Of a stretch of DNA of 64,000 nt, positions 17,787-42,144 are shown piece by piece; positions within the stretch are counted from its first letter, which is position 1, and each line of letters opens with the position of its first letter. The translations under genes and the position numbers were made by a program. The notes beneath the pieces were generated by a model that saw only the letters and a list, made by a program, of their open reading frames with translations, made no database searches and had not been told where the DNA came from. This DNA comes from a bacterium (GTDB lineage Bacteria; UBA8248), in the NCBI GenBank assembly GCA_965221165.1, contig CBDCRP010000002.1, positions 608,001 through 672,000 of the forward strand. Reading direction: 5' to 3'.

Positions 17787-17889
17787 TATTGATATCATTA
17801 CAAATAACTGTTTTCATCAATTTTGTCTCGAATCCGCCTTCCAAAATATGCAATCAAAGCGAAAGCGGATTGATTAAAACTCCTGCGCA
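17787..17889 (+). repeat. ~100-bp imperfect direct repeat, copy 1 (copy 2 at 36417-36518)
   Basis: Both copies run tattgatat...ttttcat...gaatcc...atg(c/t)aatcaaa(g/a)cgaaagcggatt..ttaaaac(t/c)cctgcgca. Confidence 0.75.
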
Positions 17890-17970
17890 AACCGGCGCGT
17901 CCGTGTCGGACGATTGTACAACCCTCCTTCAAAGTACGGCTCGCCTCAGATTCTTTACGTTTATGCTCCT

Positions 17971-18090
17971 AGGCAACCCGGCTCCGATGGACGGCGCATC
18001 CAGAAAGCGCGTCTGCGAAAGACCCTACGGGGCTTTACGCCGATACCGCCACGTGCGACCGCAGGGGAGACGAGCCGGAACGGTCTGCCC
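17971..18090 (-). ncRNA. candidate degenerate c-di-GMP-I (GEMM-I)-like riboswitch
   Basis: Minus strand GGGCAGACCG...CGGU..GGCGUAAAGCCC..GGGUCU...AGCCGGGUUGCC has GEMM-I landmarks in order; no GNRA tetraloop. Confidence 0.35.
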
Positions 18091-18721
18091 ATCATGTCAA
18101 GCAGCAATATATATCATGAACGAAATGCCGGAAAGACCCTTCGCAAATCCACAACAGGAGGAAACACTCGTATCATCCTGGCATAGTCCCGGCGCGGTTA
18201 ATTTGATGGGGACGGGATGGACGTCGGGCAGGTTCGAAAGAAGCAGCGCGATTGAATGAAGGCGCCACCAGACCAAGCCTGCGGCGCAGTCGACAACAGC
18301 GACGATGACCTTCCGAGCAGGACGACGGGCTTGTGGGGATGAGATTGCGTGTCCGGTGACGGAAGCCTAAAATATCTGGCATCCTGTGTAAAGTTTTTCA
18401 GATGGATGAAAAAAGGGTTGGCATGATCATCGATCACCACTTGCCGGAGGGCGTTATAAATGACCTGTTCACAGGGCGGTTCGGGCGGGCGTCACCTTCG
18501 CCTATTTCGGCTTTCCCGAAAACCCGGCCAATTCGGTGGTTCACCGGGTGCCGGACCCCCTGACCAACCGCTATCGCTATAAGCTGGGCAAGGGGAAGTT
18601 GAAGAAGATTGGAGAATCTCCGCACAAGCATTCCCTGACGAGTCTTAGTTTCGTTCCCCGGACGCTTTGATGGAGATGGATGCTTACAAACCCGTAGAAC
18701 CGTGAGGGAGGTTGAAAACGA

Positions 18722-19102
18722 ATGACTCGATCGAGAAGCTTTTTCATCTGCGCCATCGGCGTACTCGGAATGGCGATCTTTTTCTGGTCCTCTAATGACG
18801 GCGTCGCTCAGCAAAAAGGCGACGCTGCGGCCGGCAAGGTCAAATACCAGCAGCTTTGCGCCTCCTGCCACGGGGCGAAGGGCAAGGGCGACGGTCCCGC
18901 TGCCGGTGCGCTCAACCCGAAACCCAGAAATCACACGGACGCCAAATATATGAAGACCATATCGGATGAGTATATCGCCAAGATCACCAAGCTAGGCGGC
19001 GTCGCGGTAGGGAAATCGCCGTTGATGCCCCCCTGGGGCGGAGTTCTTTCGGACCCGGACGTCCGAAACGTAGTCGCATTCATTCGCTCCCTGGCGAAAT
19101 AG
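18722..19102 (+). CDS. monoheme class I cytochrome c
   Basis: Signal peptide, CASCH, distal Met in SPLMPPWG. Confidence 0.93.
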   Translation: MTRSRSFFICAIGVLGMAIFFWSSNDGVAQQKGDAAAGKVKYQQLCASCHGAKGKGDGPAAGALNPKPRNHTDAKYMKTISDEYIAKITKLGGVAVGKSPLMPPWGGVLSDPDVRNVVAFIRSLAK

Positions 19103-19336
19103 GAGCATGGGGATGGATTCAGGGAATCGGGATACTCTCCCCCCCGAGCGCTCCTTTCGGGTCGAGTTGCCCCATTGACTTTTCGACTGCTCACGCCTAT
19201 CTTTTTTTATAGGCGCGAGCTAAGCGCATCGTTGGACCCACGAAATTAGACCCCCGTTCGGGGGGAGGAGAAAGGAGCCCAGGCAAAGTTCGTCCCGCCG
19301 ACATAGGAGCAGAGACTGTTCGAGAGGAGAACACTT

Positions 19337-20077
19337 ATGAAAAAGTGGCGCTCATCCTTGGTACTCGTCGGTTTTCTCCTCACTTCTTTGCTCATCGTCA
19401 CATTCCTTTTCCCCACCGAAACCAAGGCTTTTGAGCGGGATTCCAAATGGGATTCCGTCTATTCGAAGGGTAGCCGGCTCTACCTGACACACTGCGCGGC
19501 CTGCCACGGGAAGGACGGCGAAGGGGGCGTGGGTCTCCCCCTGAACCTGCAAAGCTTCCTGTCCGTCGCGCCCGAAGGGTACATCCGCCGCTCCATCTTC
19601 TACGGGCGGTTGCCGCGTCATATGCTCCCGTTTGGGATTTTCCTGAAGAAGGAAGACATCGAAGCCATCGCCTCCTACGTGCGAAGCTGGCAGCTCCGCG
19701 ACTATGCGGGGATCGATCAAAACCGGGTGGCGGGCTCCGTTTCCCGCGGAAAGCTCTTCTTCGACGGGATGTGCTCCGGTTGCCATGGGCGGGACGGTCT
19801 CGGCGGCCCCCATGTGGGTGGAGGGCACGTGACCAATGCCATGGCGGGTTACGCCGGACCCGCCCTGAATAACCAGGGTTTTCTGAAATCCGCCACCGAC
19901 GGCTACATCAAGGCGACGATGATGCAGGGCCGGGTCGGTACGCCGATGGGCGCCTACCTCAAAGGAAAGCAAGGGATGGTGGAACTGACCGAGGAAGAGA
20001 TTAACGACATCGTCGCTTACATCCGCACCTGGGAAAAGCACGATTCGGGACCCGTAGACCCCTGGAGGGCCAAGTGA
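19337..20077 (+). CDS. diheme class I cytochrome c (His/Met)
   Basis: N-terminal hydrophobic segment; CAACH...HMLPF and CSGCH...TPMGAY. Confidence 0.92.
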   Translation: MKKWRSSLVLVGFLLTSLLIVTFLFPTETKAFERDSKWDSVYSKGSRLYLTHCAACHGKDGEGGVGLPLNLQSFLSVAPEGYIRRSIFYGRLPRHMLPFGIFLKKEDIEAIASYVRSWQLRDYAGIDQNRVAGSVSRGKLFFDGMCSGCHGRDGLGGPHVGGGHVTNAMAGYAGPALNNQGFLKSATDGYIKATMMQGRVGTPMGAYLKGKQGMVELTEEEINDIVAYIRTWEKHDSGPVDPWRAK

Positions 20078-22713
20078 TGCCGAGGTTTAATCGCCGTACG
20101 TTTCTGCAGTCGTCCACTGCCCTGGCCACCGGACTCGCCATGGGCGGAACCCTGACCCGCGACAAGGAGTTGTTTCAACTCGTCGGAGCAGCGGAAGGCG
20201 CCCAGGACACGCGAAAGCTGGTCCCCACGCAATGCCCCTACTGCGGAGTGGGATGCCACACCTACTACGTCGTCGAGAATGAAAAGATCGTGGCGTGCAT
20301 CCCGGACAAGGACTCCCCCGTCAACCTGGGTCTGCAGTGCATCAAGGGTCTCACGGCCGCGGAGTCCCTCTACGTCGACCGGTTGGACAAAATCCTGATC
20401 CGCAAGGACATGTCCAACCCGCTGACCGGGCACGTCTCCAAGACGAAAGGGCGTTTCGATGACGATGTCTTCCGGGTCGGCACGTGGGAAGAAGGCATGG
20501 ACATCGTCTCCAGCATGGTCGTCGGGATCGTGAAGAAACACGGGGGAAACTCCGTCGGGATCTATCAGTCCGGCCAGCTGACCATGGAGGAGCAATGGCT
20601 GGACAACATCCTCTACAAGGGCGTTCTCCAGTCGAATACCATCGAGGCCAACGCCCGGATGTGCATGACCTCGGCCGTGACGGGCTACATTCACAGCCTC
20701 GGAAGCGACCATCCACCGGGGAACTATTCCGATATCGAAGATGCCGACTTCATCAATCACTGGGGACATAACGCGCGCGGGTCGCACCCCGTCCTCTTCT
20801 GGCGCGTGGCCGCCACCAAGGAAAAACGGAACATCCCGACCATGGTGGTCGACCCGCGCTATACCGGGACCATGGACGGCTACGCCCAGGTCAACCGCAA
20901 CAACAGCCTCTCGATCACCCTTCGTCCCAACGGCGACCTCTCCCTTCAGAACGCCATCGCCCACACCCTGATGAAGGAGTTCCCCCAGGCCGTGGACGAG
21001 GCCTTCATCCGGGGGCACACGGACGGGTTCGACGATTACCGCGAGGGCATCATGGCCCGGTACAGCCCGGAGCAGGTCATCGATCGAACGGGGATCGCCC
21101 CCTCCGTGGTCAGGCGGATCGCCTCGATCTGGGCGGACGCCACCCTGAAGGGGCGGCGGCGCAAGAAAGGCGGCGTCCTCTCTTTCTGGGGGATCGGGTA
21201 CAACCAGTCGATCCATGGACAGCACCGCACCATCAACCTCATCAACCTCCATCTGCTGACCGGAAACATCGGCCGGCCGGGAGCCGGCCCGTTCTCCATG
21301 ACGGGACAGCCCAACGCCATGAGCGAACGCCTCATGGGCGGCCTGACCGGACGGCTTCCGTTCAACGAGGGCATCAAGAATGCCGAGCACCGCCGGAAGA
21401 TAAACGAGGCCTGGGGTCTCCCTCCGGGACGGCTCGACGTCACCGCCGCCGCCCCGAACAAGGGCATGACCATCGGCATGTTCGAGCGCGCCTTCAAGGG
21501 TGAAGTCAAGGTGATGCAGTTCGCCTACGCCACCCACGTGGATCTGCCGGAGGTGGAAACCCTCATCCGGCCCGCCATCACCAAGACGTTTACCTACATG
21601 GTGGAGGCCTACCGGCACGCCCCGAATCTTCTCTACGGCGATGTCATCTTCCCCGCCGCCACCCACGGGGAGAAATGGGGGGTGTACCAGAACAGCGAAC
21701 GAAAGATGTACGTCACGGACAAGGCCATGGAGCCGCCCAAAAACTGCAGGCCCGATCTGGACGTCATCATCGACGAGGGCAAGTCCATCGCCAAGAAGCT
21801 CGGCCTGAACGCGGAGAAGATATTCCCCTATGAGAGGAAGGCGGATGGTTTCTATGACCCCGAGGAGGTCTATCGGGACATCTGCCGGGCCAGCAAGGGA
21901 ACGGATGCGGATTTGACGGGAATCGTGGAGGTGGAAAAGCGGGACAAGCTCTCTCCCTATGAGCAGCTTCGAAAGCGCAAGGGAATCTTTTATCCCGCCC
22001 CCACGTATGAGATCGCCAAAGAGGGAGGGGTCGCGCGCAAGTACATGGCGCAGGAGAAGGGCTGGAAGGACAAGCCCTACAGCGCCTTCCGCCGCAAGAA
22101 CGGCAGGGCGAAGTTCAAGCTCACCGAGCAGGACTATTCACGCGCCAAAGAGCTGACGGATATCTTCGCGAAAGCGGGCAAAGACCCGAATTTCTACGCC
22201 GTTGACCATTACGACGTCCTGATCCAGATGCGCGACAACGGGTTGACGCCGGAACTTCCGGATTTCGACTACTACGGAAAATCCATGGCGGAGATTCAGA
22301 AAGCCGACAAGTACCCGTTCTGGCTGAGCCTGGGAGTCGTCTTCGAGCACTTCCACACCACCAAGACGATCCGGGCGCCCACCACCCGCCGACTGGTGCC
22401 GGAACAGTATCTCGAATTGAATCCCCGCGACGCTCGAAAACTGGGAATCGAAGACGGGGAATGGGTCCGGGTCGTAACGCCGCGGGGCAGTTACGAGGCG
22501 CGAGCCAGCATCGGCACGAAGAGCAAGGTCAAACCCGCGCGCAACAAGGTCATGCCGGGGCAGCTGTTCTCCCCGTGGAACCTATCCGTCGCGGACAGCG
22601 CCGACCCGAAGAAGAACCGCTGGCTCGTCAACGCGGTCACGCATCGGGCCTTTGATCCGGTATCCGGCCAAGTGGACTTTAAGCACGTAAAAGCAAGGAT
22701 CGAGAAGATATGA
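20074..22713 (+). CDS. Tat-exported molybdopterin oxidoreductase, NapA/NasA-like catalytic subunit
   Basis: RRTFLQ Tat motif; CPYCGVGC...C 4Fe-4S; SGQ; NARMCMTSA Mo-ligand Cys; GQPNAM; C-terminal DPVSGQVDFK. Confidence 0.88.
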   Translation: MMPRFNRRTFLQSSTALATGLAMGGTLTRDKELFQLVGAAEGAQDTRKLVPTQCPYCGVGCHTYYVVENEKIVACIPDKDSPVNLGLQCIKGLTAAESLYVDRLDKILIRKDMSNPLTGHVSKTKGRFDDDVFRVGTWEEGMDIVSSMVVGIVKKHGGNSVGIYQSGQLTMEEQWLDNILYKGVLQSNTIEANARMCMTSAVTGYIHSLGSDHPPGNYSDIEDADFINHWGHNARGSHPVLFWRVAATKEKRNIPTMVVDPRYTGTMDGYAQVNRNNSLSITLRPNGDLSLQNAIAHTLMKEFPQAVDEAFIRGHTDGFDDYREGIMARYSPEQVIDRTGIAPSVVRRIASIWADATLKGRRRKKGGVLSFWGIGYNQSIHGQHRTINLINLHLLTGNIGRPGAGPFSMTGQPNAMSERLMGGLTGRLPFNEGIKNAEHRRKINEAWGLPPGRLDVTAAAPNKGMTIGMFERAFKGEVKVMQFAYATHVDLPEVETLIRPAITKTFTYMVEAYRHAPNLLYGDVIFPAATHGEKWGVYQNSERKMYVTDKAMEPPKNCRPDLDVIIDEGKSIAKKLGLNAEKIFPYERKADGFYDPEEVYRDICRASKGTDADLTGIVEVEKRDKLSPYEQLRKRKGIFYPAPTYEIAKEGGVARKYMAQEKGWKDKPYSAFRRKNGRAKFKLTEQDYSRAKELTDIFAKAGKDPNFYAVDHYDVLIQMRDNGLTPELPDFDYYGKSMAEIQKADKYPFWLSLGVVFEHFHTTKTIRAPTTRRLVPEQYLELNPRDARKLGIEDGEWVRVVTPRGSYEARASIGTKSKVKPARNKVMPGQLFSPWNLSVADSADPKKNRWLVNAVTHRAFDPVSGQVDFKHVKARIEKI

Positions 22714-22794
22714 ATCCTCGATGAAACGAGAGGGATGGGGAGGGGACTCTCGCCTTCCTCATCTTTCCGGGCTTGGAGTTTTGGAGGTGGTAGA

Positions 22795-23385
22795 ATGGGC
22801 CTAAACAGACGGAGGTTCCTCCTCGCGGGGGCGCTGGCGCTATCCGGCGTCGCCTCCTGGGTCGCGGCCGGACGGAGGGGTTTCGCGAGTGCCAAAACGC
22901 GTTTCCGCCGTCTCCTTCGCCCGCCCGGGGCTCTGAGCGAGCAAGAGTTCCTCGATCGGTGCATTCGCTGCGCGAGGTGCGCCGCCGTCTGTCCGAACAC
23001 CGCCATTCAGATGGCCGGGTTCGGGGAGGGCCTTCGAAACCTCAACACACCCTACATCGTCCCCCGCGAACAGGCTTGCATGCTTTGTATGAAGTGCACC
23101 GAAGTCTGCCCGACGGGGGCCTTGACCCAAATCGCCCCGGACGCCGCCGCCGTCCTCTCTCAGGTCAAGATGGGTCGCGCGGTGGTGGATCAATCCATGT
23201 GCTACTCGTACCAGAAGCGCACCTGCGGGGTGTGCATTCGCGCCTGTCCTTTTCCCGGGGTGGCCATGAAGACCGGAATGTACGAGCAGCCCATCGTGAC
23301 GGACGCCTGCGTGGGCTGCGGGCTCTGCGAGCGCGCCTGCATCCACGTCCCGCAGGCGATCCGGATCGTCCCGGTGGAGTCCTGA
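22795..23385 (+). CDS. NapG/MauM-like polyferredoxin
   Basis: NRRRFL, LRPPGA, four Cys clusters; GGAGG RBS. Confidence 0.88.
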   Translation: MGLNRRRFLLAGALALSGVASWVAAGRRGFASAKTRFRRLLRPPGALSEQEFLDRCIRCARCAAVCPNTAIQMAGFGEGLRNLNTPYIVPREQACMLCMKCTEVCPTGALTQIAPDAAAVLSQVKMGRAVVDQSMCYSYQKRTCGVCIRACPFPGVAMKTGMYEQPIVTDACVGCGLCERACIHVPQAIRIVPVES

Positions 23386-23389
23386 TACC

Positions 23390-24913
23390 GTGGTTCGCTG
23401 GCTTCGAAGAGGGATTCAGCTGGGGGCCCTCGGTCTTCTCCTGGCCGTCCCCGCCCTCAATTACGGGGGGATCCTCTACCAGCAGTACGGCAAGAACGGC
23501 TACCACAAGATCTCCCTGACGGGAACCGTCTTCGAACAATGGCTCTACCACCTGTTTTCGGTCACGGTCGGGCGCCTGGCGGACCCCGCCGTCCGCTCGA
23601 TGGACTGGGTGGGCAATTTCGGGTCGTTCTCCGTGTTCGGGTTCCCGATTCTCGATCCGGTGGTTGCGGCGGAGACCGTGATCCGCACCCCGGGCGTCTG
23701 GCCGGCTCTCCTGGCGGGGGCCGCGCTCCCGGTTGTTGTGGCCGTCGCCCTCGGGCGGATCTTCTGCGGGTGGGTCTGCCCGGTGAACACCCTCCTGGAG
23801 GGATTCGACCTCCTGAGACGGCGCGCGCTGCCGAAGATCGGCATCCGTCCGCCGGACCTCGTCGTTCCCCGGTGGGCCAAGTGGCTCCTGCTCGTCGTCG
23901 GGCTGAGCGCGGCGGTCGTCTTCGACATCGCCCTCTGGGCGAACCTCCTCCCCCACGTTCAGATCGGGCGGGACGTGTTTTCTCTGATGGTGTTCGGCGT
24001 CACCAACGGCGGCGTCCTGGTTTTCTCGGCGATCATTCTGGCCGAGTTGCTCCTTTCCCGCCGGGCGTGGTGCCGCTCCCTCTGCCCGACCGGCGCGGTT
24101 CTAGGCCTCTTCGGCTCCGTGGCCCCCTTTCGGGTGCGAAAAGCCGAGCGTTCCTGCATCGACGGTTGCACGGCCTGTGCGAGAGCCTGTCCCATGGGGG
24201 TCAATCCGGCGAAGCCGTTCTCCCCGGCCGAATGCTACAACTGCGGGGTCTGTACGACCGCGTGCCCCGTCGACCTCCTGACCCTGGGACTCGCTCCCTC
24301 CCGCAGACGCTTTCCGGCCAGGCTCCTCTCGCGCCTGAGAAAGGGCGTCTCCCTGGGGTTGGGGGTGGCTCTGCTCCTGATACCGGTCGCCGCCTCCGGC
24401 CATCATATGCGGGGAAAGCCCCATTACGGCTATGCCGAGAATTACCCCCAGATCCCCACGCGCGAAACGCGCGTCCGGGTCGGCCGTTACGACATCACCG
24501 TGGTGAGCTATTTTTTCGAGGGGCTGCGCCGCCAAACTTCGGACACGCCGGACGACGTGCAGTTCTACGTCAGCCTCACGGACTCTCGGACCGGCCAAAG
24601 CTACACGGGCCCCCTGACCATCGAGGTGCGCCGGGGGGAGACCCGGCTTGCGGTCTTCCAGCACGACCGGCCTCTCGAGGAAGCCGTGTACCGGGTCCGC
24701 CAGTCGGTGCCGGGAACGGGGCTTTATAACCTCAGGCTCGTCGCCGACGGGTTTCAGGGGTCCGTCTCGGTCGAAGTCCGGGGCGATACCGTCTCCTGGA
24801 TGCCGTACGCGGCATCGGGCGGGGTCCTGCTGTTCGTCTTGCTCCTCTTTTTCCACCGGAGGCGAGCCCGGGCGGCCCGCCGAAGGAAGACTCATGCGGC
24901 ACCTGGCGCGTAA
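23390..24913 (+). CDS. NapH/MauN-like membrane polyferredoxin fused to an extra C-terminal domain
   Basis: GRIFCGWVCP, RAWCRSLCPTG, two CxxCxxCxxxCP, then TM + HHMRGKPHYGYAENYPQIP domain + terminal TM. Confidence 0.85.
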   Translation: MVRWLRRGIQLGALGLLLAVPALNYGGILYQQYGKNGYHKISLTGTVFEQWLYHLFSVTVGRLADPAVRSMDWVGNFGSFSVFGFPILDPVVAAETVIRTPGVWPALLAGAALPVVVAVALGRIFCGWVCPVNTLLEGFDLLRRRALPKIGIRPPDLVVPRWAKWLLLVVGLSAAVVFDIALWANLLPHVQIGRDVFSLMVFGVTNGGVLVFSAIILAELLLSRRAWCRSLCPTGAVLGLFGSVAPFRVRKAERSCIDGCTACARACPMGVNPAKPFSPAECYNCGVCTTACPVDLLTLGLAPSRRRFPARLLSRLRKGVSLGLGVALLLIPVAASGHHMRGKPHYGYAENYPQIPTRETRVRVGRYDITVVSYFFEGLRRQTSDTPDDVQFYVSLTDSRTGQSYTGPLTIEVRRGETRLAVFQHDRPLEEAVYRVRQSVPGTGLYNLRLVADGFQGSVSVEVRGDTVSWMPYAASGGVLLFVLLLFFHRRRARAARRRKTHAAPGA

Positions 24914-25027
24914 GACAACCCATATCCTCGCCGGGACGCCGTGGGCCCTTCGCCTGGGCGACTGGACCCTCGATGAGCCGCTGAACGCCCTAGGGGCGCT
25001 GGCCGGCCGCCGGCCTGAGGATGCGCG

Positions 25028-25606
25028 ATGAAGCCGATCGAATTCGACCGACGGACCTTCCTGCAAAAGGGGCCTTTCGCCTTTCTCCAGGCGGTCCTCT
25101 CCGGGTCTTCAACCGCTAGCGCCGATCCGCCCCGACCGCCGCTCCGGCCGCCGGGCGCCGCACCGGAGGAGGAATTCCTCGAGCTGTGCTGCGGCGTCGG
25201 CGCGTGCGCGGAGGTCTGCCCGGCCGAAGCCATCCGGCTGGTCCCCAGGACGGACGATTCAGGAGCCCTCCACCCGATCATCGTCCCCCAGGAGGCCGCC
25301 TGTATCGTCTGTGAGGACCTCGCCTGCATGAAGGCCTGCCCGAGCGGCGCCCTCACCCTGGTGTCCCGCGAGGAGATCCGGATCGGGCTCGCGCAGGTGA
25401 ACCCCGACCGCTGCCTCGCGTGGAGCGGGACGGACCCGGGCTGTGATTATTGTGTGGACCGGTGCCCGCTCGGGACACAAGCCATCCGATTCGAGCGCGC
25501 CGGATCGGTTCGGGGCCCCGTAGTCGAGAAAGGGTGTATCGGGTGCGGCGTCTGTGAGCATTTCTGCCCGACGCAACCTTCCGCCATCCGGGTGTACGGC
25601 TGCTGA
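25028..25606 (+). CDS. NapF/NapG-like polyferredoxin
   Basis: DRRTFLQ, LRPPGA, multiple Cys clusters. Confidence 0.85.
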   Translation: MKPIEFDRRTFLQKGPFAFLQAVLSGSSTASADPPRPPLRPPGAAPEEEFLELCCGVGACAEVCPAEAIRLVPRTDDSGALHPIIVPQEAACIVCEDLACMKACPSGALTLVSREEIRIGLAQVNPDRCLAWSGTDPGCDYCVDRCPLGTQAIRFERAGSVRGPVVEKGCIGCGVCEHFCPTQPSAIRVYGC

Positions 25607-25624
25607 ATCCCGCCTGAAATCTCC
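25571..25624 (+). repeat. 54-bp direct repeat (3' end of the ferredoxin gene), copy 1; copy 2 at 42091-42144
   Basis: 51/54 identical, core tccgccatccgggtgtacggctgctgaatcccgcctgaaa exact. Confidence 0.9.
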
Positions 25625-25912
25625 TAAACCATTTGGCCGGGGATTTCTCAGGGATTGTCCGGAGATCGGAGGATGGCGGCGGTAGCACTCGGGTGCTGAA
25701 GATGCCGATCCAAGAGCTGATTTTCTTGCAACTCATTATATTTCAACAGGACATATGATTTTTTTGTTCCAAAACATCTCCGGAATGCAATCCGTTTACG
25801 TGAAATATCGACCCGATAATGAAAATAATCGTGCCCAAACCATATGGCGGGCCCGGCATGCAGATGGAACATGAGGAGGTGTTTCGCCCCGTTTAAGGGC
25901 TGTTTTCCCGAG

Positions 25913-25940
25913 CCTTTGTAATTATTTTTGTCCGGCTACA
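25913..25940 (-). mobile_element. Tn7-like transposon end (terminal TGT at 25940, interior to the left)
   Basis: Minus strand TGTAGCCG-GACAAAAATAATTACAAAGG; same layout as Tn7 ends TGTGGGCG-GACAA(A/T)A. Confidence 0.6.
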
Positions 25941-26244
25941 CGCTCGGACCCAGAGAGCGCTCGAGCGCCTTGAGGCGCCTGCCCCGGTGGAAGTAAAAGC
26001 ATCCGTACATTATTCTTCGCCGGGGGTAACAGATCCGCCCGGAAACTCCGCTCTGCCGGCAGCTCCCGGAAGTGGTTTTTTCCCACGAGAGCAGGACTTG
26101 CGCCTCGCGCCGTTTGCCCATCATTTGCTCTGGTCGGTGCGCTTCCCGGGCAATTGCCCCATCGCTGAGAATCCACGAACGGAAAATATCTCGAACATCC
26201 TCTCACGCGGCCAGGATTCGTTGTTGGGACAAGCCAATTTTTGG

Positions 26245-26273
26245 TTGACAATGACGGGAACAAGACCTACATT
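26245..26273 (+). promoter_or_regulatory. sigma70-like promoter of the IclR gene
   Basis: TTGACA-17bp-TACATT, 42 bp before the ATG, followed by an AT-rich imperfect palindrome. Confidence 0.6.
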
Positions 26274-26315
26274 ATTAAGAAATAAGAATAAATTTCTTTA
26301 TATTTGAGAAATTAA

Positions 26316-27095: not shown

Positions 27096-27214
27096 AAATC
27101 CTGTTTTCGGGAAATCTGTGCGAATCCTCGTGATATGGAGTCTCGTCGTTGCTTGATCATCCATCCGGGAAGTCAAGAAAGGTTCTTTGTCTACCCAACC
27201 AAGGAGGGCAGAAA

Positions 27215-28183: not shown

Positions 28184-28200
28184 CTTGCCGTACGGGCACT

Positions 28201-34163: not shown

Positions 34164-34187
34164 TTGATGCAAAAGGAGTGAGACAGG

Positions 34188-35294
34188 ATGTCAAAAGAAG
34201 GGATGGTTTCCATCGCGTTGGCCGGGGACGTGTTCATCGGCAAGAAGCTTCCTCGTCCGGGAGAGCCGGGAGCGGAACCCGTGCGCGCCCTTTTCGAGCG
34301 CATGGCGGGGGCCGACGTGACGTTCATCAACCTGGAGAGCCCGTATTCCGAAAGGGGCTATCCGGCCGAGAAATACACGTTTCTACGGTCCCACCCTTCC
34401 CTGATAGACGAGTTGGACGAAATGGGGGTGGACGTCGTCACCCTCGCCAACAATCACATGCTCGACTACGGCTACGACGCGCTTTTCGACACCCTGTCTC
34501 TTCTCGACGCGAAGGGGGTTCGGCGCGTGGGAGCAGGCCGGAATCTGCAGGAGGCGTACGCGCCGGCCATCATTCAGAAGGCCGGGGTCCGCGTGGCTTT
34601 CCTGGGTTTCGCCTCCACCCTTCCGCTCGGCTGCTCCGCAGGCGAGGAGCGTCCCGGCCTCGCACCCATCCATATCTTTTCCGCTTTCGTCCTGGAGCCG
34701 AGCCCGAGAACCCAGGAACAACCCGGGACGCCGCCTCCCGTGAAGACTTTTCCGCTCCAGGCCGATCTCACGCGCATGCAAAACGTCGTGGCGGCGGCGA
34801 AGCGGGAGGCGGACATTGTGATCGTCGCCGGTCATTGGGGGCTGGCGAGCCGCCACGACCTGGCGGAATACCAGACGTGTGTCGGTCGCGCGCTCGTGGA
34901 TGCGGGCGCGGATGTGGTTCTGGGGCATCACTCCCACACGCTTCAGGCGGTCGAAATCTACAAAGGAAAGCCGATCCTCTACGGAGTAGGGAATTTCATC
35001 TTCCACGAACTGCCCGATGTCGGAAACTCCGAACTGTCCTACGGCGGCGTGATGACGCCGAAACTCATTAAAACGCGCATGCCGCGGGAGACGGCTCTCT
35101 TTGAACTCACGGTCGAAAAGGATGGGGTGGCGGACTTAGGCTTCGTTCCAGTTTCGATTGACGATTCAGGCAATCCCGGCTTCGTCGAAGGCGAGAGAGC
35201 CGAAGGGGTGATCGACCTCGTGGAGAGGCTCTCGGCGGAGTTCACTACCCGAATCACTCGGAAGGACGGCATGGGGAAATTCGTTCTGGAATAG
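34188..35294 (+). CDS. CapA (PGA_cap) family metallophosphoesterase-fold protein 2
   Basis: AGD, NLES, ANNHMLDYG, GHWG, GHHSH, YGVGNF. Confidence 0.88.
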   Translation: MSKEGMVSIALAGDVFIGKKLPRPGEPGAEPVRALFERMAGADVTFINLESPYSERGYPAEKYTFLRSHPSLIDELDEMGVDVVTLANNHMLDYGYDALFDTLSLLDAKGVRRVGAGRNLQEAYAPAIIQKAGVRVAFLGFASTLPLGCSAGEERPGLAPIHIFSAFVLEPSPRTQEQPGTPPPVKTFPLQADLTRMQNVVAAAKREADIVIVAGHWGLASRHDLAEYQTCVGRALVDAGADVVLGHHSHTLQAVEIYKGKPILYGVGNFIFHELPDVGNSELSYGGVMTPKLIKTRMPRETALFELTVEKDGVADLGFVPVSIDDSGNPGFVEGERAEGVIDLVERLSAEFTTRITRKDGMGKFVLE

Positions 35295-35453
35295 AAGGCT
35301 TTGCGGGATATTCGCCGCATTGACTCCCACCCGGGGGAACGCACTCCAGGGGGCCGGCGCCGCATCGTCGACCCGGGCGCTTGCATCAAGAGTCGCCCTG
35401 CATCTTCCATCGGAAGAAAAAGATAGTTCATTCATGAGCGATGAGGATTGGCA

Positions 35454-36242
35454 ATGGACATGGCCCTGGAGGGGAAGGTTGCTCTCGTCACCGGAGGGAC
35501 GAGCGGCATTGGAAAGGCGACGGTATTGGCCTTTGCGGACCAAGGCGCGAAGGTCGCCTTCTGCGGTCGGGATCAAGCCCGCCTGGACACCGCACTTGAG
35601 GCGGTCGAGGAGCGGGGCGGTGTGGGTCTCTCTCTTCGTGCGGACATCAGCGTGGAGGAACAAGCGTCGGAGCTTGCGTCTCGTGTGGTCGAGTCTTTCG
35701 GGCGGCTGGACATCCTCGTGAACAACGCCGGACGCGCGGCGCCGAGTTCGCTTCCCTCGCTGACGCCGGTGCAGATTCGGAAGACAGTGGACACGAAGAT
35801 CGTCGGTTATCTCGTGGTCACGCGCGAGGCGGCGCATTTCATGCAAAAGCAACATGGCGGACGGATCATCAACATGGTCGGAGGAACCGGCAAAGAACCC
35901 CTGCCCGGCGTTCTGGGAGGAAGCACGACGAACGCCGCGCTTTTGGGTCTGAGCAAAGGACTCTCCCAAGCCCTGGCCAAAGACGATATCCTGGTGAACA
36001 CGATCTGTTTGGGCCAGATCGATACGCCCATGCAGGACTGGATGACGGAGCAACTCGCCAAAGAACGAGGGATATCGATCGACGAAATGCGGCGGGCCCG
36101 TGAATCACAAATTCCCCTCGGACGATTCGGCTCTCCCGAAGAAGTGGCGGGGCTGGCGGTGTTTCTGGCGTCGGTTCACGCGGGCTACATCACGGGAGCA
36201 ACGATCAACGTCGACGGCGGAAAATTCCATTCGATCGTCTGA
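35454..36242 (+). CDS. SDR family oxidoreductase (atypical active site)
   Basis: TGGTSGIG, NNAG, YITG..INVDGG; GSTTN where YxxxK is expected. Confidence 0.88.
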   Translation: MDMALEGKVALVTGGTSGIGKATVLAFADQGAKVAFCGRDQARLDTALEAVEERGGVGLSLRADISVEEQASELASRVVESFGRLDILVNNAGRAAPSSLPSLTPVQIRKTVDTKIVGYLVVTREAAHFMQKQHGGRIINMVGGTGKEPLPGVLGGSTTNAALLGLSKGLSQALAKDDILVNTICLGQIDTPMQDWMTEQLAKERGISIDEMRRARESQIPLGRFGSPEEVAGLAVFLASVHAGYITGATINVDGGKFHSIV

Positions 36243-36254
36243 ACATTCGCGCGC

Positions 36255-36302
36255 CGTAGCCGGACAATAACTATTGCAAATCGAGACAAAATAATTGCAA
36301 AT
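36255..36302 (+). mobile_element. Tn7-like transposon end with tandem TnsB-like sites (interior to the right)
   Basis: cGTAGCCG-GACAATAACTATTGCAAA-tcga-GACAAAATAATTGCAAA; sites 22 bp apart; inverted relative to 25913-25940; terminal T is C. Confidence 0.62.
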
Positions 36303-36416
36303 AGTCTGGAAAATCCCTCGAGTTTCCGGCCGTTTTTTGGCCGGAAGATTTTGCCCAGTTTTGATCCCGTTTTGATATATCAAGCCGTTTCCATCGGTTG
36401 CGAAATGTTCATATGC

Positions 36417-36518
36417 TATTGATATTATTTAGAATATCTATTTTCATTGCTCGCATTTAGAATCCATTTTCCCAGCATGTAATCAAAACGAAAGCGGATT
36501 CGTTAAAACCCCTGCGCA
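36417..36518 (+). repeat. ~100-bp imperfect direct repeat, copy 2
   Basis: Aligns with 17787-17889. Confidence 0.75.
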
Positions 36519-36567
36519 TGTGGGCGTCTCCCTGTCTCCGGGGGAGTATGGATTCAGAAGGGTCGGG

Positions 36568-37371
36568 CTATCCCCCGTACTCGGATGCCCCCTCGAATAC
36601 CTTCGTACTCTCCTTTGCGATGAGGTCCAGGCACCTCGCCTTGGTCTCCATGAAGGCCTGGGAAGTCAGCATCGTCCGCACCCGCGGCCGCTGCAGAGGC
36701 ACTTTGAGCTCCTGGATGATTCTCCCCGGCTGCACCCCCATCACGAAGATTCGGTCCGCCATCAAAATTGCTTCGTCCACATCGTGGGTGATGAAGAGCA
36801 TGCTCATCTGGTGCTCTTCCCAGAGCTTGAGCAGCCACTCCTGCATGAGGAGACGGGTCTGGGCGTCGAGCGCCGCGAAAGGCTCGTCCATGAGGAGGAT
36901 CTCCGGATTGTTGATGAGAACACGGGCGATGGAGACGCGCTGTCGCATCCCTCCCGAGAGTTCGTCCGGGTGGTGGCGCTCAAAACCCGTGAGCCCCACG
37001 CGCTTGACGAATTCGTGCGCCCGGGGCAGGAATTCCCTCCTGGGCACTCCCTGGATCTTCAGCGCGAAGGCGATGTTGTCTTCCACGGTAAGCCAGTGGA
37101 ACAGGAAGTGCTCCTGGAAAACGACGCCGCGCTCCGGGCCGGGTTTTGTGATGGGACGCCCTTCGAGCAGCGCCTTCCCCTCGGAGGGCAGGATGAACCC
37201 CGCGATGATGTTCAAGATGGTGGTTTTGCCGCACCCGCTCGGGCCCAGGAGGGCGACGGTCTCCCGGTCTTCGATGCCGAAGGAGACATCCCTCAGGGCC
37301 ACCGTCTCCCGTCCTTTTCTGGGGTCTTCGAAGATTTTGGTAACTCTCTCGAGCCGAACTTTTTCCGTCAT
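36568..37371 (-). CDS. ABC transporter ATP-binding protein (TauB/SsuB type)
   Basis: GPSGCGKT, LSGGMRQR, LMDEPFAALD. Confidence 0.93.
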   Translation of the reverse strand: MTEKVRLERVTKIFEDPRKGRETVALRDVSFGIEDRETVALLGPSGCGKTTILNIIAGFILPSEGKALLEGRPITKPGPERGVVFQEHFLFHWLTVEDNIAFALKIQGVPRREFLPRAHEFVKRVGLTGFERHHPDELSGGMRQRVSIARVLINNPEILLMDEPFAALDAQTRLLMQEWLLKLWEEHQMSMLFITHDVDEAILMADRIFVMGVQPGRIIQELKVPLQRPRVRTMLTSQAFMETKARCLDLIAKESTKVFEGASEYGG

Positions 37372-37507
37372 CTGTGCAAGATTCCTAATCGAGCGTCTTC
37401 AGGCGCCCCGCGACGAGCTGCGAGCGGCGGCAACGTGGATTTCGGATACGCGCCCCCATCCTCCTTCCCCCGTCTTTTCCGAAGAAACGCCTCTCTCTCC
37501 TTTTGCA

Positions 37508-38260
37508 TCACACCACCCTGTAGTGGACGAACATGCGGCGGGAGAGGGCGTGAACGGAGCGATCCAGGCAGAAGCCCATCAAGCTGAGGGTGACGAAGGC
37601 GACGAACATCCGCTCCGTCTTGGTATAGATCTGGGCATCCCAGATCATGAAGCCGACCCCCGATTTCGCGGCAAGCATCTCCGCCGCCACGATGGTCATG
37701 AAGGCGTTGCTGAGGGCCAACTGCAAGCCGGTGACCATGTAGGGAACCGTCTCGGGGACGACGATCCGGAAAAGGACCTGGGTCCCGGTGGCGCCGAGGC
37801 TCCGGGCGGCCCGGATGGCGCCCTCCCGCACCGAGGCGGCCCCCGCCATGGTGTTCACCACCACGATGAAGACCGCCGTGTAGAAGATCAGGACGATTTT
37901 CGATTCTTCGCCGAAGCCGAACCAGATGATGAACAACGTGACCAGGGTCACGGGCGGGACGAAGCGGAAGTATTCCAAAACGGGAAGAGCGAGCGCCCGC
38001 ACCCAGGGGAGCCGTCCCATGATGATGCCAAGAAAAGAACCGACGACGCCCCCGAGCACCCATCCCGAGAGAACCCGGAACAAGCTCATCACGATATTCC
38101 AGGGCAACTCGCCGGTGCGTGTAATTTCGATGGCCTTCAGTATGGTGGCCAAGGGGGAAGGGAGGAAGATCGGGGGATACACAAAGGTAAAACCCCACCA
38201 GGCCACCAGGAAAATGGCCACAGAAAGGGTGTAAATCGCGATGGCTCCCTCGATCCTCAA
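37508..38260 (-). CDS. ABC transporter permease (TauC/SsuC type)
   Basis: AARSLGA EAA loop, AAEMLAA. Confidence 0.92.
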   Translation of the reverse strand: MRIEGAIAIYTLSVAIFLVAWWGFTFVYPPIFLPSPLATILKAIEITRTGELPWNIVMSLFRVLSGWVLGGVVGSFLGIIMGRLPWVRALALPVLEYFRFVPPVTLVTLFIIWFGFGEESKIVLIFYTAVFIVVVNTMAGAASVREGAIRAARSLGATGTQVLFRIVVPETVPYMVTGLQLALSNAFMTIVAAEMLAAKSGVGFMIWDAQIYTKTERMFVAFVTLSLMGFCLDRSVHALSRRMFVHYRVV

Positions 38261-38291
38261 ATCTCCCTTTCCCCCTTTCGCCCGCTTCGTT

Positions 38292-39290
38292 CTAGTACGG
38301 GAAGTCCGTCACCCTGGAGGCGTCCACCGCCCGGAGGAAGCTCGGGTCGATGATGTTCTTCCAGTTCGGAGCCTGCTTGATGTGGCCCAGCTTCTTCTTG
38401 AACGCGGAAACCTCCTGAAGGGTATCGAAGTAACTCTTGTCGAGCCAGATTTTCAGTTTGTAGTCGTTCAGCGCCGCCTTGGCGTCCGCCGCGCTGGAGC
38501 GGGTGACCTTCTGGAACACGGCCGCCGCCGCTCCGGGATCCGCGTTGGCCATATCCGTCGCCTCGATCAGAGCCCGCAGGAAGCGCTTCAGGGTTTTGGG
38601 CTTCTCCTTGGCGAAACCTCGGCGGACCGTCAAGTGGAAGTTGGGCTCGTAATCGCTGGACTTGCTTGCCGCCAGAATGTGAAGGGCATCCCCCTTGATC
38701 TTCATCACCTTGCGCGGCCAGGGTTCCCAGAACCACATGGCCTCCACGGCGCCCTTCACCATGGTGGGAGCGGCTTCGGGCGGAGGGAGGTTGACGTGAT
38801 CCAGCTTCTTGTAGTCGATGCCCCTGTTTGCGAGGAACTTGATGAACCCGAACTCTCCGCCGGTTCCGCCCATCCAGGTCACTTTCTTTCCGATGAGGTC
38901 CCGGGGGCTTTTGATCGACTTTTTGGCCACCAGCTTCATGCTCTCGTTGCCCTGCGCCGTCGCGGCCACGATGATGGCGTCGATCCCCTTGGCGATGTTC
39001 GAGATGGTGGGCGGATCGCTCTGAAAGGAGATGTCCAATTGGCCGCTGCCGATGGCCCGCAGGCCCACCAAAGCGGTGTGGCCCATGGTGTTGGTGGTCT
39101 TGAGTCCGTGCTTCTTGAAAATCCCCTTGTCCTCGGCCAGCCAGTAGGGTATCCCCAGCGAAGTGGGCTCGCTCGAAAAGCGAACCACTCCGTCGTCGGC
39201 CGCCCCCGCAGGCCCGAGACCGACCCCAAGGAAGAACGCCAACACGGCAACTCCCACAATTTCCCGTATCCAGCTTCTTTCACGCATCAT
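38292..39290 (-). CDS. ABC transporter substrate-binding protein (SsuA/TauA/NMT1 type)
   Basis: Signal peptide, GIFKKHGL, DLIGKKV, WEPW. Confidence 0.9.
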   Translation of the reverse strand: MMRERSWIREIVGVAVLAFFLGVGLGPAGAADDGVVRFSSEPTSLGIPYWLAEDKGIFKKHGLKTTNTMGHTALVGLRAIGSGQLDISFQSDPPTISNIAKGIDAIIVAATAQGNESMKLVAKKSIKSPRDLIGKKVTWMGGTGGEFGFIKFLANRGIDYKKLDHVNLPPPEAAPTMVKGAVEAMWFWEPWPRKVMKIKGDALHILAASKSSDYEPNFHLTVRRGFAKEKPKTLKRFLRALIEATDMANADPGAAAAVFQKVTRSSAADAKAALNDYKLKIWLDKSYFDTLQEVSAFKKKLGHIKQAPNWKNIIDPSFLRAVDASRVTDFPY

Positions 39291-39485
39291 AGGTCATTCT
39301 CCTCTTTTCACTGGGTGAAGTTCCATGAGGCAACGCATCGCGATTGAAACCCGGCGCATCCGTTTGCGCCTGTGCTGGAGGTGAGTGGATTCGAGAACCC
39401 GGTTCGGGTTCGTGAGCGAAGTGCGGAAGGGTTTCGGAACGAAATCATTCTTAGCCCTTTCATCCAGACCGGCAGTTGTTCCGGT

Positions 39486-40241
39486 TCACACCACCCGGTA
39501 GTGGGAAAGAAACCGGTAGGCGAAGAACCGGAACACCCGATCGGTGGCCAGCCCCAACAGGCCCAGGCCGAGAAAGCCGACAAAAATCTGATCGGTCAGC
39601 ATGAAGTTTCTTGCAGACCAAATAAGGTATCCCATTCCGGAACGGGCAGCAAGCATTTCCGCCGCCGCGATAACGATGAACGCGTTTCCCATGGCCATCC
39701 GCATGCCCGTCACGATGTAGGGCACCGTTTCGGGCACGACCACCTGGAGCAGGACCTGGGTTTCCGTCGCTCCCAGGCTTCGGGCGGCGCGCAGGACCCC
39801 CGGGGGTGCGCTCAAGGTTCCGGCCATGGTGTTGATCACGATCACGAAAAACGAGGTGTAGAAAACGAGCATGATCTTCGAGGCTTCGCCGAGCCCGAAC
39901 CAGACGATGAAGATGCCCACGAACGAAATAGGCGGAATGTAGCGCAATCCCTGGATGTAGGGGGTGGCGAAGGCGCGAACGCCGGGCAGCCAGCCCATGA
40001 GCAGGCCCAGGGGAACTCCCAACGCGCACCCCAGAAGCCAGCCGCCCATGATCCGGCCCAGGCTCATCAGGATGGATTCTTGGAGAAAGCCCGTGCGCGC
40101 CAACTCGATGGCCGTCATGACGGTGAGCCAGGGCGAGGGAACAAAGAGTGGATGGGAGAACGCCGCCACTATCCACCAGGCGCAGATGAAGAGCGAAAAT
40201 CCCAAGACGGAGAGCATCCCCGACCATTGTTTGCCCCGCAT
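39486..40241 (-). CDS. ABC transporter permease (TauC/SsuC type)
   Basis: AARSLGATETQ, AAEMLAARSGMG; paralogue of 37508-38260. Confidence 0.92.
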   Translation of the reverse strand: MRGKQWSGMLSVLGFSLFICAWWIVAAFSHPLFVPSPWLTVMTAIELARTGFLQESILMSLGRIMGGWLLGCALGVPLGLLMGWLPGVRAFATPYIQGLRYIPPISFVGIFIVWFGLGEASKIMLVFYTSFFVIVINTMAGTLSAPPGVLRAARSLGATETQVLLQVVVPETVPYIVTGMRMAMGNAFIVIAAAEMLAARSGMGYLIWSARNFMLTDQIFVGFLGLGLLGLATDRVFRFFAYRFLSHYRVV

Positions 40242-40574
40242 GCTCTCCTGCCCCCAAGCTTCGCGCCCCGTGTGACAAGACGGCTTCCGCAATTTGGATG
40301 AGGATAATAAATGTAGTATGCAACCAAATGTATCATATTCAACCGATTGGAGAAATCCGCTAGAATGGGAGGAGCGATGCCGTCTCGGCTCCGGGGCGAA
40401 TGGGGATGCCCTTGTTTTTCAGGCCATTGCGATCTGCGACTTCACTCGGGCGGCGCGCCCGCGACGCCTCGCCGGGTATACCTTCGCCGGCCGGAGAACC
40501 GGAGCGAAAATGAAGGCCCGGCCCGACAGCATTCGATTCCATTTCGGAAGGCGTTTCACCGAAGGGGGGATAGC

Positions 40575-41339
40575 ATGGATTCATTCCTGAACTTTGAGGG
40601 GCAGGACGTCATCGTGACCGGCGGAGCGACAGGGGTGGGGGAGGCGAGCGCGCGCCTATTCGCCGAGCGGGGCGCTTCCGTCGCCATCCTCGACATCAAC
40701 GGCGAGGGAGCGGAGAGCGTCGCCGCCGACATTCGAAGGGGCGGAGGAGACGCGCAGGCATTCGAGGTGGATCTCACCGATTGGGACGCCACCCGCTCCG
40801 CCGTCGAGGCGGCCCATAACCGGCATGGGCGTATCGACGTGCTCGCGCACGTGGCCGGCGGATTCCCGGAATTCTTCGGCCTTCTCGACTGTCCGCTGGA
40901 GACGTGGGATCCGATGGTGGCGAGCAACCTGAAATCGATGTTCATTCTGCTCAAGGCGGTCGCGCCTTACATGATCGAGGCGCGCTACGGCCGCGTCGTA
41001 TGCTTTTCCAGCCTGGCCGCCCGCAGTGCGGTCAACCCGAACCCGCCCCACTACACCGCGGCGAAAGCCGGCGTTCTCGGCCTTGCGCGTCAAGTGGCGG
41101 GCGAGCTGGGTCCCCACGGCATCACCGTAAACGCGATCGCGCCCGCCAACGTGGCCACCCCGAGCACCATGGCCATACGCAAACCCGAGCGCATTCGGCA
41201 TATCGAGCAGGTGACGCCCGTCGGCCGCCTGTGCCAACCCGAAGAGGTCGCGGCGGCGGTCATATTCCTATGCAGCCGGGAGGCCGGCTACATCACAGGC
41301 GTCACGCTCGACGTGAACGGCGGGGCGACGATGATATAA
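40575..41339 (+). CDS. SDR family oxidoreductase
   Basis: TGGATGVG, YTAAK catalytic motif. Confidence 0.92.
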   Translation: MDSFLNFEGQDVIVTGGATGVGEASARLFAERGASVAILDINGEGAESVAADIRRGGGDAQAFEVDLTDWDATRSAVEAAHNRHGRIDVLAHVAGGFPEFFGLLDCPLETWDPMVASNLKSMFILLKAVAPYMIEARYGRVVCFSSLAARSAVNPNPPHYTAAKAGVLGLARQVAGELGPHGITVNAIAPANVATPSTMAIRKPERIRHIEQVTPVGRLCQPEEVAAAVIFLCSREAGYITGVTLDVNGGATMI

Positions 41340-41542
41340 CGTCATCCGGACTTTCCGGCGCGGTAAGAGAGCCGGAACGTCCGGGCCCTCGACAACACAG
41401 GAGCACGTAACCGCCCGGCTCGTAGCTATTGGATACGCTTCTTCTATAGTCTTGTTGTTTCGAATACTGGACGGCGGCGCATGGAACGATTGGCGGATTG
41501 CTTCGCAAAATCGCGTTCCTTTATTTTGAAAGGGAAAGGCAT

Positions 41543-41935
41543 ATGACAGTCAAGATCATCAATTCACCCAGGATCAAAAGTCTCGGCGTCTACAATCAGG
41601 CCATCCAGGTGACCGGCGGCTCACTCCTCTTCGTGAGCGGCTGCGTCTCCGTGGACGGCGAGGGAAACCTGGTGGGCAAGGGAGATCCGGCTGCGCAGAT
41701 GCGCCAGATCCTCACGAATATCCGGACCATTCTCGAAGAAGCCGGCGCGGGGCTCGAAAACGTCGTCAAGATCATGGTCTTCAGCGCGGATCTGAACAAT
41801 CGCAAGGTGATGAACGAAGTCCGCCAAGAAATGTTCGGCGGGCATCTCCCGGCCAGCTCCCATGTACAGGTGGCCCGCCTCATCGACCCCGACTGGCTCG
41901 CCGAGGTCGAGTGCGTAGCCGCGCTGCCCGCCTGA
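41543..41935 (+). CDS. RidA/YjgF/UK114 superfamily protein
   Basis: YNQAI, LLFVSG, ENVVK, LPASSHVQV, AEVECVA. Confidence 0.9.
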   Translation: MTVKIINSPRIKSLGVYNQAIQVTGGSLLFVSGCVSVDGEGNLVGKGDPAAQMRQILTNIRTILEEAGAGLENVVKIMVFSADLNNRKVMNEVRQEMFGGHLPASSHVQVARLIDPDWLAEVECVAALPA

Positions 41936-41974
41936 GCGCGCCCGGCGTCCCTCGGGAAATCCGCAACCGATCCG

Positions 41975-42090
41975 AATCGATGAGGGCTTCCGCCTCGATC
42001 TCCACCACCATGTCGGGGTGGGCGAGCCGGCTCACGCCGAGCAGGGTGTTCGTGGGTAGGAGATTGTTGAACACCTTGTAGCGCTCCTCC
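41975..42090 (-). pseudogene. C-terminal remnant of a second Rid-family gene
   Basis: ERYKVFNNLLPTNTLLGVSRLAHPDMVVEIEAEA; 5' part replaced at the 42091 repeat. Confidence 0.7.
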
Positions 42091-42144
42091 ACGCAGCCCT
42101 CCGCCATCCGGGTGTACGGCTGCTGAATCCCGCCTGAAACCTCC
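42091..42144 (+). repeat. 54-bp direct repeat copy 2 (orphan 3' tail of the ferredoxin gene)
   Basis: Encodes TQPSAIRVYGC*, same as the end of 25028-25606. Confidence 0.9.

Follow-up and report, generated by a model that had tools for sequence, protein, structure and literature searches.

Transposon-type end repeats within a mosaic island of operon blocks in a sponge-associated bacterium

We analysed a stretch of 64,000 nucleotides (the window; positions 608,001 to 672,000, forward strand, of contig CBDCRP010000002.1, GenBank assembly GCA_965221165.1) from a bacterium of the lineage UBA8248, here called G000, in which two short sequences resemble the ends of Tn7-like transposons. The original prediction, made from the letters of the window, took them for the ends of two direct, decayed copies of a non-autonomous Tn7-like element with swappable metabolic cargo. 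The window does hold two half elements, which are not chance matches, and both belong to a repeat found in a single genus. With a probability that we put at roughly 70%, they are relics or trans-dependent remnants of an element of the TnsB/MuA type and have no present part in moving the genes of the window; the 24.5-kb mosaic island in which they lie would have arisen as lineages exchanged operon blocks, which were joined at dispersed repeats and, in one illegitimate insertion, through a microhomology. The signature of a transposon end had been read correctly from the raw sequence as far as the motif is concerned, and wrongly as far as the element is concerned. Positions outside the window are given with the handle of their genome, contig or locus (C2 and C3 alone refer to G000).

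Two half elements and a repeat confined to one genus

The two half elements are the following:

25798..25940, minus strand: solo L-type half element, with the terminus TGTAGCCG at 25940-25933, a single 22-bp unit at 25932-25911 and then about 110 bp of sub-terminal sequence

36255..36372, plus strand: solo R-type half element, with the terminus cGTAGCCG at 36255-36262, abutting 22-bp units at 36263-36284 and 36285-36306 and then hairpin modules

On the minus strand 25915-25940 reads TGTAGCCG-GACAAAAATAATTACAAA, and 36255-36306 consists of cGTAGCCG followed by GACAATAACTATTGCAAATCGA and GACAAAATAATTGCAAATAGTC, the two abutting units. The ends had been placed at 25940 (minus) and 36255 (plus), facing away from each other, and the sequences are as then described: a repeat search of the window reports 25915-25939 and 36256-36280 as inverted arms that are 84% complementary. 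The termini themselves face each other across an operon with an IclR regulator and TRAP transporter genes, and their interiors point outward. With at most one mismatch the 12-mer GTAGCCGGACAA occurs twice in the window, against 0.18 expected from shuffles, and 1 of 100 shuffles reached two occurrences. Motif scans showed no further end within 17-43 kb, and none near 17.8 or 42.1 kb that might act as a partner. The Tn7-type architecture that had been claimed, an 8-bp TGT terminus with abutting 22-bp units, was confirmed as that of a repeated element.

The identification as half elements follows from their likeness to the two halves of a 284-bp mini element in G007, the nearest complete relative (a single contig, used here as the synteny reference). 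The left half of this mini element matches window 25790-25941 at 85% identity, and its right half matches 36255-36372 at 80%.

The layout is the same in all copies: unique flank, TGTAGCCG, one to three abutting 22-bp GACAAAAATAATTGCRAA units and hairpin modules CTGGAAAA…TTTTCCAG. The number of units is one at 25911-25932, two at 36263-36306 and three in a G007 copy (L016:7452). We searched G000 and 40 relatives; the exact motif pattern is present in five of these 41 genomes, all five from one genus. At up to three mismatches it occurs five times in G000, five in G007, three in G005, twice in G022 and 25 times in G008, with no match for a reversed control pattern, and the copy number thus ranges from 0 to 25 between species of a single genus. 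The further sites in G000 are C2:780896, C3:1566791, C3:1567868, C3:1567946, C3:1567994 and C3:1747928, and include an 80-bp palindromic form of the repeat (C3:1567866-1567945). Mini elements of 185-284 bp, in which R-type and L-type ends face each other, occupy one orthologous place in G007, G005 and G022, where they truncate an FAD-oxidoreductase gene; this gene is intact in G000, in which the site is empty.

The copies of G008 (25-26, on contigs G008:C10 and G008:C3, in a genome of 3.1 Mb) are mostly one-ended. They have about 200 bp inward of the terminus in common and lack a second inverted end. All 26 have unique flanks up to a sharp terminus, 16 of the 26 start with TGT, and at one locus a copy stands in place of the final ~470 bp of a gene conserved in G000, G019, G005 and G022. 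Since the termini are sharp, the flanks unique and genes cut short, the repeats are more readily taken for an end of mobile DNA than for an operator. The three loci at which ends face each other (G000 C3:1567866-1567995, G007 L016:7451-7734 and G008 C10:816629-829660) all lack a 5-bp target duplication.

One of the ends in the window can be followed through the genus. The R-type end begins 13 bp past the stop codon of the SDR gene that closes the IclR/TRAP operon, and an alignment of the DNA 3' of this stop codon comprised 12 sequences, ten of them from relatives and two from G000. In nine of the 12 a right-type end stands in the same register, with increasing decay in G003, G002, G014 and G020, and G021 has no site after the stop codon in this alignment. 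Because it is inherited with the SDR gene across the genus and decayed in the distant species, the right end is old: it has come down with the upstream SDR gene and its operon from early in the history of the genus, and it has no tie to the ABC/SDR/Rid genes found next to it in the window. In G007, G005 and G022, indeed, other DNA follows the same right end and the ABC/SDR/Rid genes are located elsewhere. No common target is seen among the other copies of the end. G004 (L112) and G010 (L113) have an inverted site, TTTGCAATTATTCTTGTTTCCCCGCA, 3 bp past the SDR stop, where the others carry the right-type end, and in both the operon lies on the interior side of this site.

On a quite different view, the 22-bp units never belonged to a transposon end and are maintained by selection because a host protein binds them, for instance a regulator, a nucleoid protein or a factor with a role at operon borders. 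We consider this unlikely. The sharp outer edge at the TGT terminus with unique DNA beyond it (26 of 26 copies in G008), the truncation of genes that are intact in relatives, the spread of copy number within the genus, the free decay of the orthologous site after the SDR gene in four species together with its absence from G021, and the presence on G008:C3 of an end directly after a phage tail module all argue for mobile DNA, even though non-orthologous copies are nearly identical (24-25 of 25 bases), are intergenic, bracket an operon in the window as an inverted pair, and are accompanied by neither a transposase nor a target duplication. A dif/Xer-like site and an integron attC were considered and dropped for lack of resemblance.

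A second type of site, TGTAG(T/C)CGGACAACC… followed by repeated TTGTCC/GGACAA words, was noticed in G000 at C2:924216, C2:928544, C2:1079030, C3:670695 and C3:2047297. These sites may be ends of another element family.

Operon blocks, their joins and a 16.5-kb insertion

The island around the half elements is made up as follows (protein families as assigned by the databases named):

17764..42250: mosaic island of 24.5 kb, between the GFO/IDH/MocA paralogs 16640-17728 and 42256-43581

17739..17990, plus strand: copy of a dispersed intergenic family (nhmmer and alignment)

18476..19172, plus strand: copied patch of 697 bp, 100% identical to C2:1002804-1003500

19173..25624, plus strand: Nap-like block with a di-haem cytochrome c, a NapA/Fdh-family molybdoenzyme and NapG-like, NapH-like and NapG-like proteins (Pfam)

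25571..25624, plus strand: left copy of a 54-bp duplication, the 3' end of the NapG-like ferredoxin gene plus 18 bp

25625..42090: composite insertion of 16.5 kb in the ferredoxin 3' end, consisting of the L half element, the IclR/TRAP block, the R half element, a family element and the ABC/SDR/Rid block

25941..26201, plus strand: upstream region of the IclR operon, of a type found in more distant species

26202..36356, plus strand: IclR/TRAP operon block of 10.15 kb between the two outward-facing ends, with an IclR regulator, a TAXI/TRAP binding protein, a fused TRAP permease, a cyclic amidohydrolase, a lyase, two PGA_cap proteins and an SDR (Pfam and NCBIfam)

36359..42097, minus strand: ABC/SDR/Rid block with an ATPase, two TauC/SsuC-like permeases, an NMT1 binding protein, an SDR and a Rid protein (Pfam and NCBIfam)

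36359-36567: second element of the dispersed family, within the ABC/SDR/Rid block

42091..42144, plus strand: right copy of the 54-bp duplication (three-way alignment)

Comparison with G007 separates the island from its surroundings. On either side the window (10001-17763 and 42251-50000) is collinear with G007:552098-568666 at 87-92% identity, and another 15 kb of backbone agrees with G007, G005 and G022 at 90-92% identity. The two GFO/IDH/MocA paralogs that flank the island (68.6% DNA identity) are 908 bp apart in G007, with one gene between them. The blocks of the island are found there at scattered positions: the 697-bp patch at 2.30 Mb, the Nap-like block at 2.14 Mb (G007:2136558-2143012, 97% identical), the IclR/TRAP block at 3.80 Mb (G007:3802695-3812851, 96-97%) and the ABC/SDR/Rid block, inverted, at 2.02 Mb (G007:2019231-2013487, 96%). 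An identity of 96-97% in the blocks, against 87-92% in the backbone, indicates exchange of the blocks between lineages. All NCBIfam matches in the Nap-like block are below the curated cut-offs.

The 697-bp patch contains the 3' end (the last ~64 codons) of a molybdoenzyme gene and a whole 126-aa cytochrome c gene (18722-19102), and is located upstream of the Nap-like cluster. Because the copy at C2:1.0 Mb has its flanks in common with G007:2300415, it is the source locus. The exact repeat was also considered as a mobile element and rejected, being a gene fragment and a cytochrome c gene copied from that locus. In the upstream region of the IclR operon, 25975-26201 aligns at ~90% with the corresponding region of G003 and G004, and not with that of G007, G005, G022 or the second copy of the operon in G000. 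This second copy is inverted (C2:790905-780816), 95.5% identical and has the 36255 end inside it; the paralogous end, at C2:780896, is without the second of the two 22-bp units. It is the C2 copy that is the syntenic ortholog of the single G007 copy.

Contigs ~91-95% identical to the IclR/TRAP operon were also observed in sponge-metagenome runs from other studies (26230-36251 in run X1 and 26182-32057 in run X2). The X1 contig stops at 36251, four bases short of the right-type end.

The right-hand join of the 16.5-kb insertion involves a duplicated gene tail. The 3' end of the ferredoxin gene (25571-25624) recurs at 42091-42144 with 94.4% identity over 54 bp (BLAST; a repeat search gives 61 nt at 90%). 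In G007, G005, G003 and G004 this tail is single and passes straight into the sequence of 42145-42234, as does the Nap-like block of G007 as a whole, with 25625-42090 absent between the two. On this four-species comparison 25625-42090 is an insertion that duplicated 54 bp of its target. The first 7 bp of the right copy, ACGCAGC (42091-42097), constitute a microhomology at the join with the ABC/SDR/Rid block. The original prediction had noted the same ferredoxin tail at the end of both its units; the tails are present, and they surround a 16.5-kb insertion as a target duplication instead of closing two element copies.

A second sequence that it had counted as shared between the two units, about 100 bp of sub-terminal DNA at 17787 and 36417, also exists, and is part of one family of dispersed elements with 22 intergenic copies of ~170-330 bp in G000 (nhmmer). 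The two stretches, 17787-17907 and 36417-36536, are 72% identical over 121 bp (BLAST), and an ungapped core of 60 nt is 80% identical. Members of the family have a sharp left edge, ATTTCGCCCG…, an invariant TTGA in a TTGATAT core and a conserved stretch …GTAATCAAAACGAAAGCGGATTCATTAAAACTCCCGCGCATCC…; the conserved core also includes …GTAATCAAAACGAAAGCGGATTCATTAAAAC…. Several identities were tried for this family and rejected. As a coding sequence it has no conserved open reading frame (ORF). As a structured RNA it gave 0 pairs with RNAalifold on 19 copies (given strand only) and has no Rfam match; Rfam gave no match anywhere in the window at the gathering threshold and nothing meaningful in 17650-18480 at E <=10. 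A promoter module was rejected since the orientation relative to adjacent genes varies. Taken as the inner part of the same transposon end, it directly follows an end in only one of four family copies (nine loci of relatives, 25 site hits) and in the two operon copies of G000.

The edge of this family recurs at the joins of the island. The left boundary of the mosaic (17763/17764) is ~25 bp inside the element at 17739-17990, and three breakpoints are located at the left edge of a family element or within ~25 bp of it (17763, 36356/36359 and G007 L045:2732). In G007 each of the mosaic blocks is bordered by family elements, and the ABC/SDR/Rid block is flanked by two.

Could the mosaic be a product of assembly, with pieces of a co-occurring G007-like strain joined into the chromosome at repeats? 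The assembly of G000 is binned from a metagenome and has 8.5% contamination, identity to G007 is 96-97% in the blocks and 90-92% in the backbone, several of the joins are at repeats, and the Nap-like block shows variant letters at about half depth in both runs that contain the stretch, X20 and X21 (which probably represent the source sample and do not count as an independent one). The joins themselves speak otherwise. A Logan contig of X20 (1,885 bases) covers 25590-27474 with 0 differences and an X21 contig spans 25591-26375, so that at least three of the nine joins (25625, 25941 and 26202) are bridged by independently assembled contigs among those listed. Depth is even across the stretch in both runs, apart from paralog-rich bins, and an assembler does not produce joins of the kind seen here, with a 7-bp microhomology and a 54-bp duplicate that has diverged (94%). 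We regard a chimera as very improbable.

The same evidence bears on the two-copy model of the original prediction, with Nap-like cargo in one copy, ABC/SDR/Rid cargo in the other, and movement by a transposase acting in trans. Its appeal lies in the Tn7-like architecture of the ends and in their placing. Tn7 inserted at glmS has its multi-site end nearest the gene, as has the end 13 bp past the SDR stop codon, whose interior leads into the ABC/SDR/Rid genes while that of the 25940 end leads into the Nap-like genes. However, neither proposed copy has a partner end near 17.8 or 42.1 kb, the shared 100 bp belongs to a family of 22 dispersed copies, the ferredoxin tails are the target duplication of an insertion, the same right end adjoins other DNA in G007, G005 and G022 with the ABC block elsewhere, the motif-carrying genomes have no rve/TnsB-like gene, and 0 of 3 facing-end loci have a 5-bp duplication. 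The segment that is actually duplicated in G000 is the 10.15 kb between the ends, outside both of the proposed copies. This model seems to us very improbable.

Two observations concern the DNA to the right of the mosaic. At 48253-48472 seven to eight 22-bp units GCAAATCCTCCCTCACCGGTCG stand in tandem, with related arrays at many further sites of the genome, for example C3:1061598-1061835 and C2:924361-924479, and there are local direct-repeat pairs at 45403-45610 / 47952-48159 (88%) and 45698-45958 / 46522-46782 (86%).

Transposase, parent element and the readings compared

The only gene with an rve match in G000 is the orfB of an IS3-type element (C2:1140471-1141400). There is none in G005, G007 or G008, and G022 has only a 158-aa fragment. 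Across the genus, six of 23 genomes have rve matches, and among carriers of the motif these are limited to the IS3-type orfB of G000 and the G022 fragment. The only rve frame of TnsB size (616 aa) is in G015, where the motif pattern is absent; two frames of >1,300 aa are also found in that genome. Beyond the orfB and the fragment, no motif-carrying genome has an rve/TnsB-like gene. The absence of tnsABCD from the window, which had been claimed, is consistent with Pfam scans of 30 window ORFs (part of all its ORFs).

We extended the search to other collections. A motif scan of the GTDB representatives returned 44 stretches, against ~35 estimated by chance, and the full context was present only in the genus's own records. 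JGI metagenomes (two patterns) and IMG/VR gave 0 motif matches. Elements encoding Tns proteins, which the original prediction expected to have the same ends, were not found in the genus, the GTDB representatives, JGI or IMG/VR; the motif itself is not a chance match. No description of the end repeat was found in a limited literature search. Two further candidates in G008 were rejected. The 13 kb between facing ends contains only metabolic genes and a restriction-modification pair, without a transposase, and is not an autonomous element; two long ORFs on G008:C3 that had been considered as transposase genes are wrong-frame artefacts.

The surroundings of the repeat in G008 point to a phage. On G008:C3 (22.5 kb) an end with two abutting units is located ~135 bp past the last gene of a phage tail module, which includes a tape-measure protein, a J-like central fibre (3.6e-79), a tail fibre (1.7e-104) and a tail-fibre-assembly-like gene. 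The inner conserved part of the G008 repeat, ~100 nt, corresponds to the 3' end of this last gene. Two sites lie near a fragment of a Mu-type portal gene (8.4e-43; G008 C10:2073520-2073969), a degenerate one at a distance of 3.3 kb and a good one at 9.3 kb. The transposases MuA and TnsB are related, and the layouts of their ends are alike. The tail-module and portal context makes a circumstantial case for a Mu-like transposable phage as the parent. Relatives of the G008 portal in IMG/VR (three contigs, 48-49% identity) have no motif at up to three mismatches, no intact prophage with two ends was found, MuA and MuB were not found with rve and two models whose controls were silent, and G000 has no homolog of the G008 tail genes.

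Taken with the mosaic, these results suggest the following course of events. A repeat confined to the genus may once have formed the ends of a DDE transposon of the TnsB/MuA kind, whether carried by a transposon or by a transposable phage, and would now be orphan. Its half-copies in the window do not bound any cargo: they point away from the IclR/TRAP operon, and at least the right one has been inherited with it. Operon-sized blocks would have passed between lineages and then been joined by recombination rather than by transposition, at or beside dispersed repeats (the family-element edge and the half elements) and, in one case, at a 7-bp microhomology. The last visible event is the entry of 16.5 kb into the ferredoxin 3' end, with duplication of 54 bp. 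The architecture of the ends, the copy numbers, the lack of an rve transposase, the synteny, the contrast in identity and the sequences of the joins were observed as such, and former transposition, a phage origin and recombination as the means of joining are inferred from them.

Some of the results weigh against this course of events. Conservation among the non-orthologous ends exceeds what neutral relics should show. Such near-identity could mean recent activity of an unseen transposase or selection for the binding of a host protein, and since relics explain it poorly, a small probability stays with both a host-binding role and hidden activity. Three breakpoints on the same sharp edge of the family element look more site-specific than plain homologous recombination. 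Profile searches for TniQ, Mu-transpos_C and DDE_2 gave no match, but control genomes were equally silent and these negatives carry no weight. G000 is 96% complete with 8.5% contamination, and a mobile element could have remained unassembled. Finally, the bridged joins shown are only three.

Several of these points would be met if the ends and the ~250-bp family elements were cis-sites of an active modular system that moves operon cassettes between sites and species of these sponge-associated bacteria, with the transposase provided in trans. A Mu-like transposable phage, infecting the cells without ever residing in the assembled genomes, is one candidate for its source. If true, such a system would account for the near-identical non-orthologous ends, for the rise to 25 copies in a single species and for the position of block boundaries on sharp repeat edges. 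We think it rather improbable, and prefer orphan ends within an island assembled by recombination.

With orphan ends of the TnsB/MuA type and metabolic operons (Nap-like respiration and TRAP- and ABC-linked catabolism) whose position changes from species to species and whose sequences are closer across species than the backbone, the genus is a candidate for studying the shuffling of operon modules in uncultured symbionts. The sequence TGTAGCCG-GACAAAAATAATTGC provides a concrete query for the missing transposon or transposable phage in viromes.

Comparison with known systems

The closest likeness is with the ends of Tn7 and Tn7-like elements. Elements of this kind are united by arrays of ~20-bp repeats at their ends, as outlined in PMC8649781, and the account of Tn7 in PMC11406308 gives four partly overlapping 22-bp sites for the right end and spaced sites for the left. 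The repeat described here has in common with them a terminal TGT, an 8-bp terminus, ~22-bp units starting with GACAA that are packed (two to three abutting) at one end and single at the other, and an intergenic location. Unlike in Tn7-like elements, no tnsA, tnsB, tnsC, tnsD or tniQ was found in the carriers, there is no 5-bp duplication, the ends in the window face outward and most of the G008 copies are one-ended. Membership in the Tn7-like transposons thus fails on transposition genes, on the 5-bp duplication and on inward-facing ends.

Mu-like phages offer a second comparison. Set beside the layout of Mu ends, the repeat has the TG terminus, the 22-bp units and, on G008:C3, two abutting units at an end next to tail-fibre genes; it differs in that no MuA or MuB was found (the controls of the models being silent), no intact two-ended prophage exists among the copies seen, and the portal relatives are without the motif.

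In the mini elements we find the features by which miniature inverted-repeat transposable elements (MITEs) and solo ends are recognised: a short (185-284 bp), non-coding form with inverted termini, present in multiple copies and varying in presence between the genomes of different species. Unlike MITEs, it has no target duplication, many copies are single-ended, and no parent transposon was found in the genus, the GTDB representatives, JGI or IMG/VR. Transposition genes and ends can degrade while the cargo stays behind as an island, according to the treatment of such elements in PMC11014353.

For the island as a whole, the comparison is with genomic islands. An integrase, a tRNA target and conjugation genes were not seen among the 30 window ORFs scanned, in which respect it is unlike many of these. 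It resembles islands built by recombination in that its blocks are closer between species than the backbone is, its joins are at repeat edges and a microhomology, and it contains a segmental duplicate.

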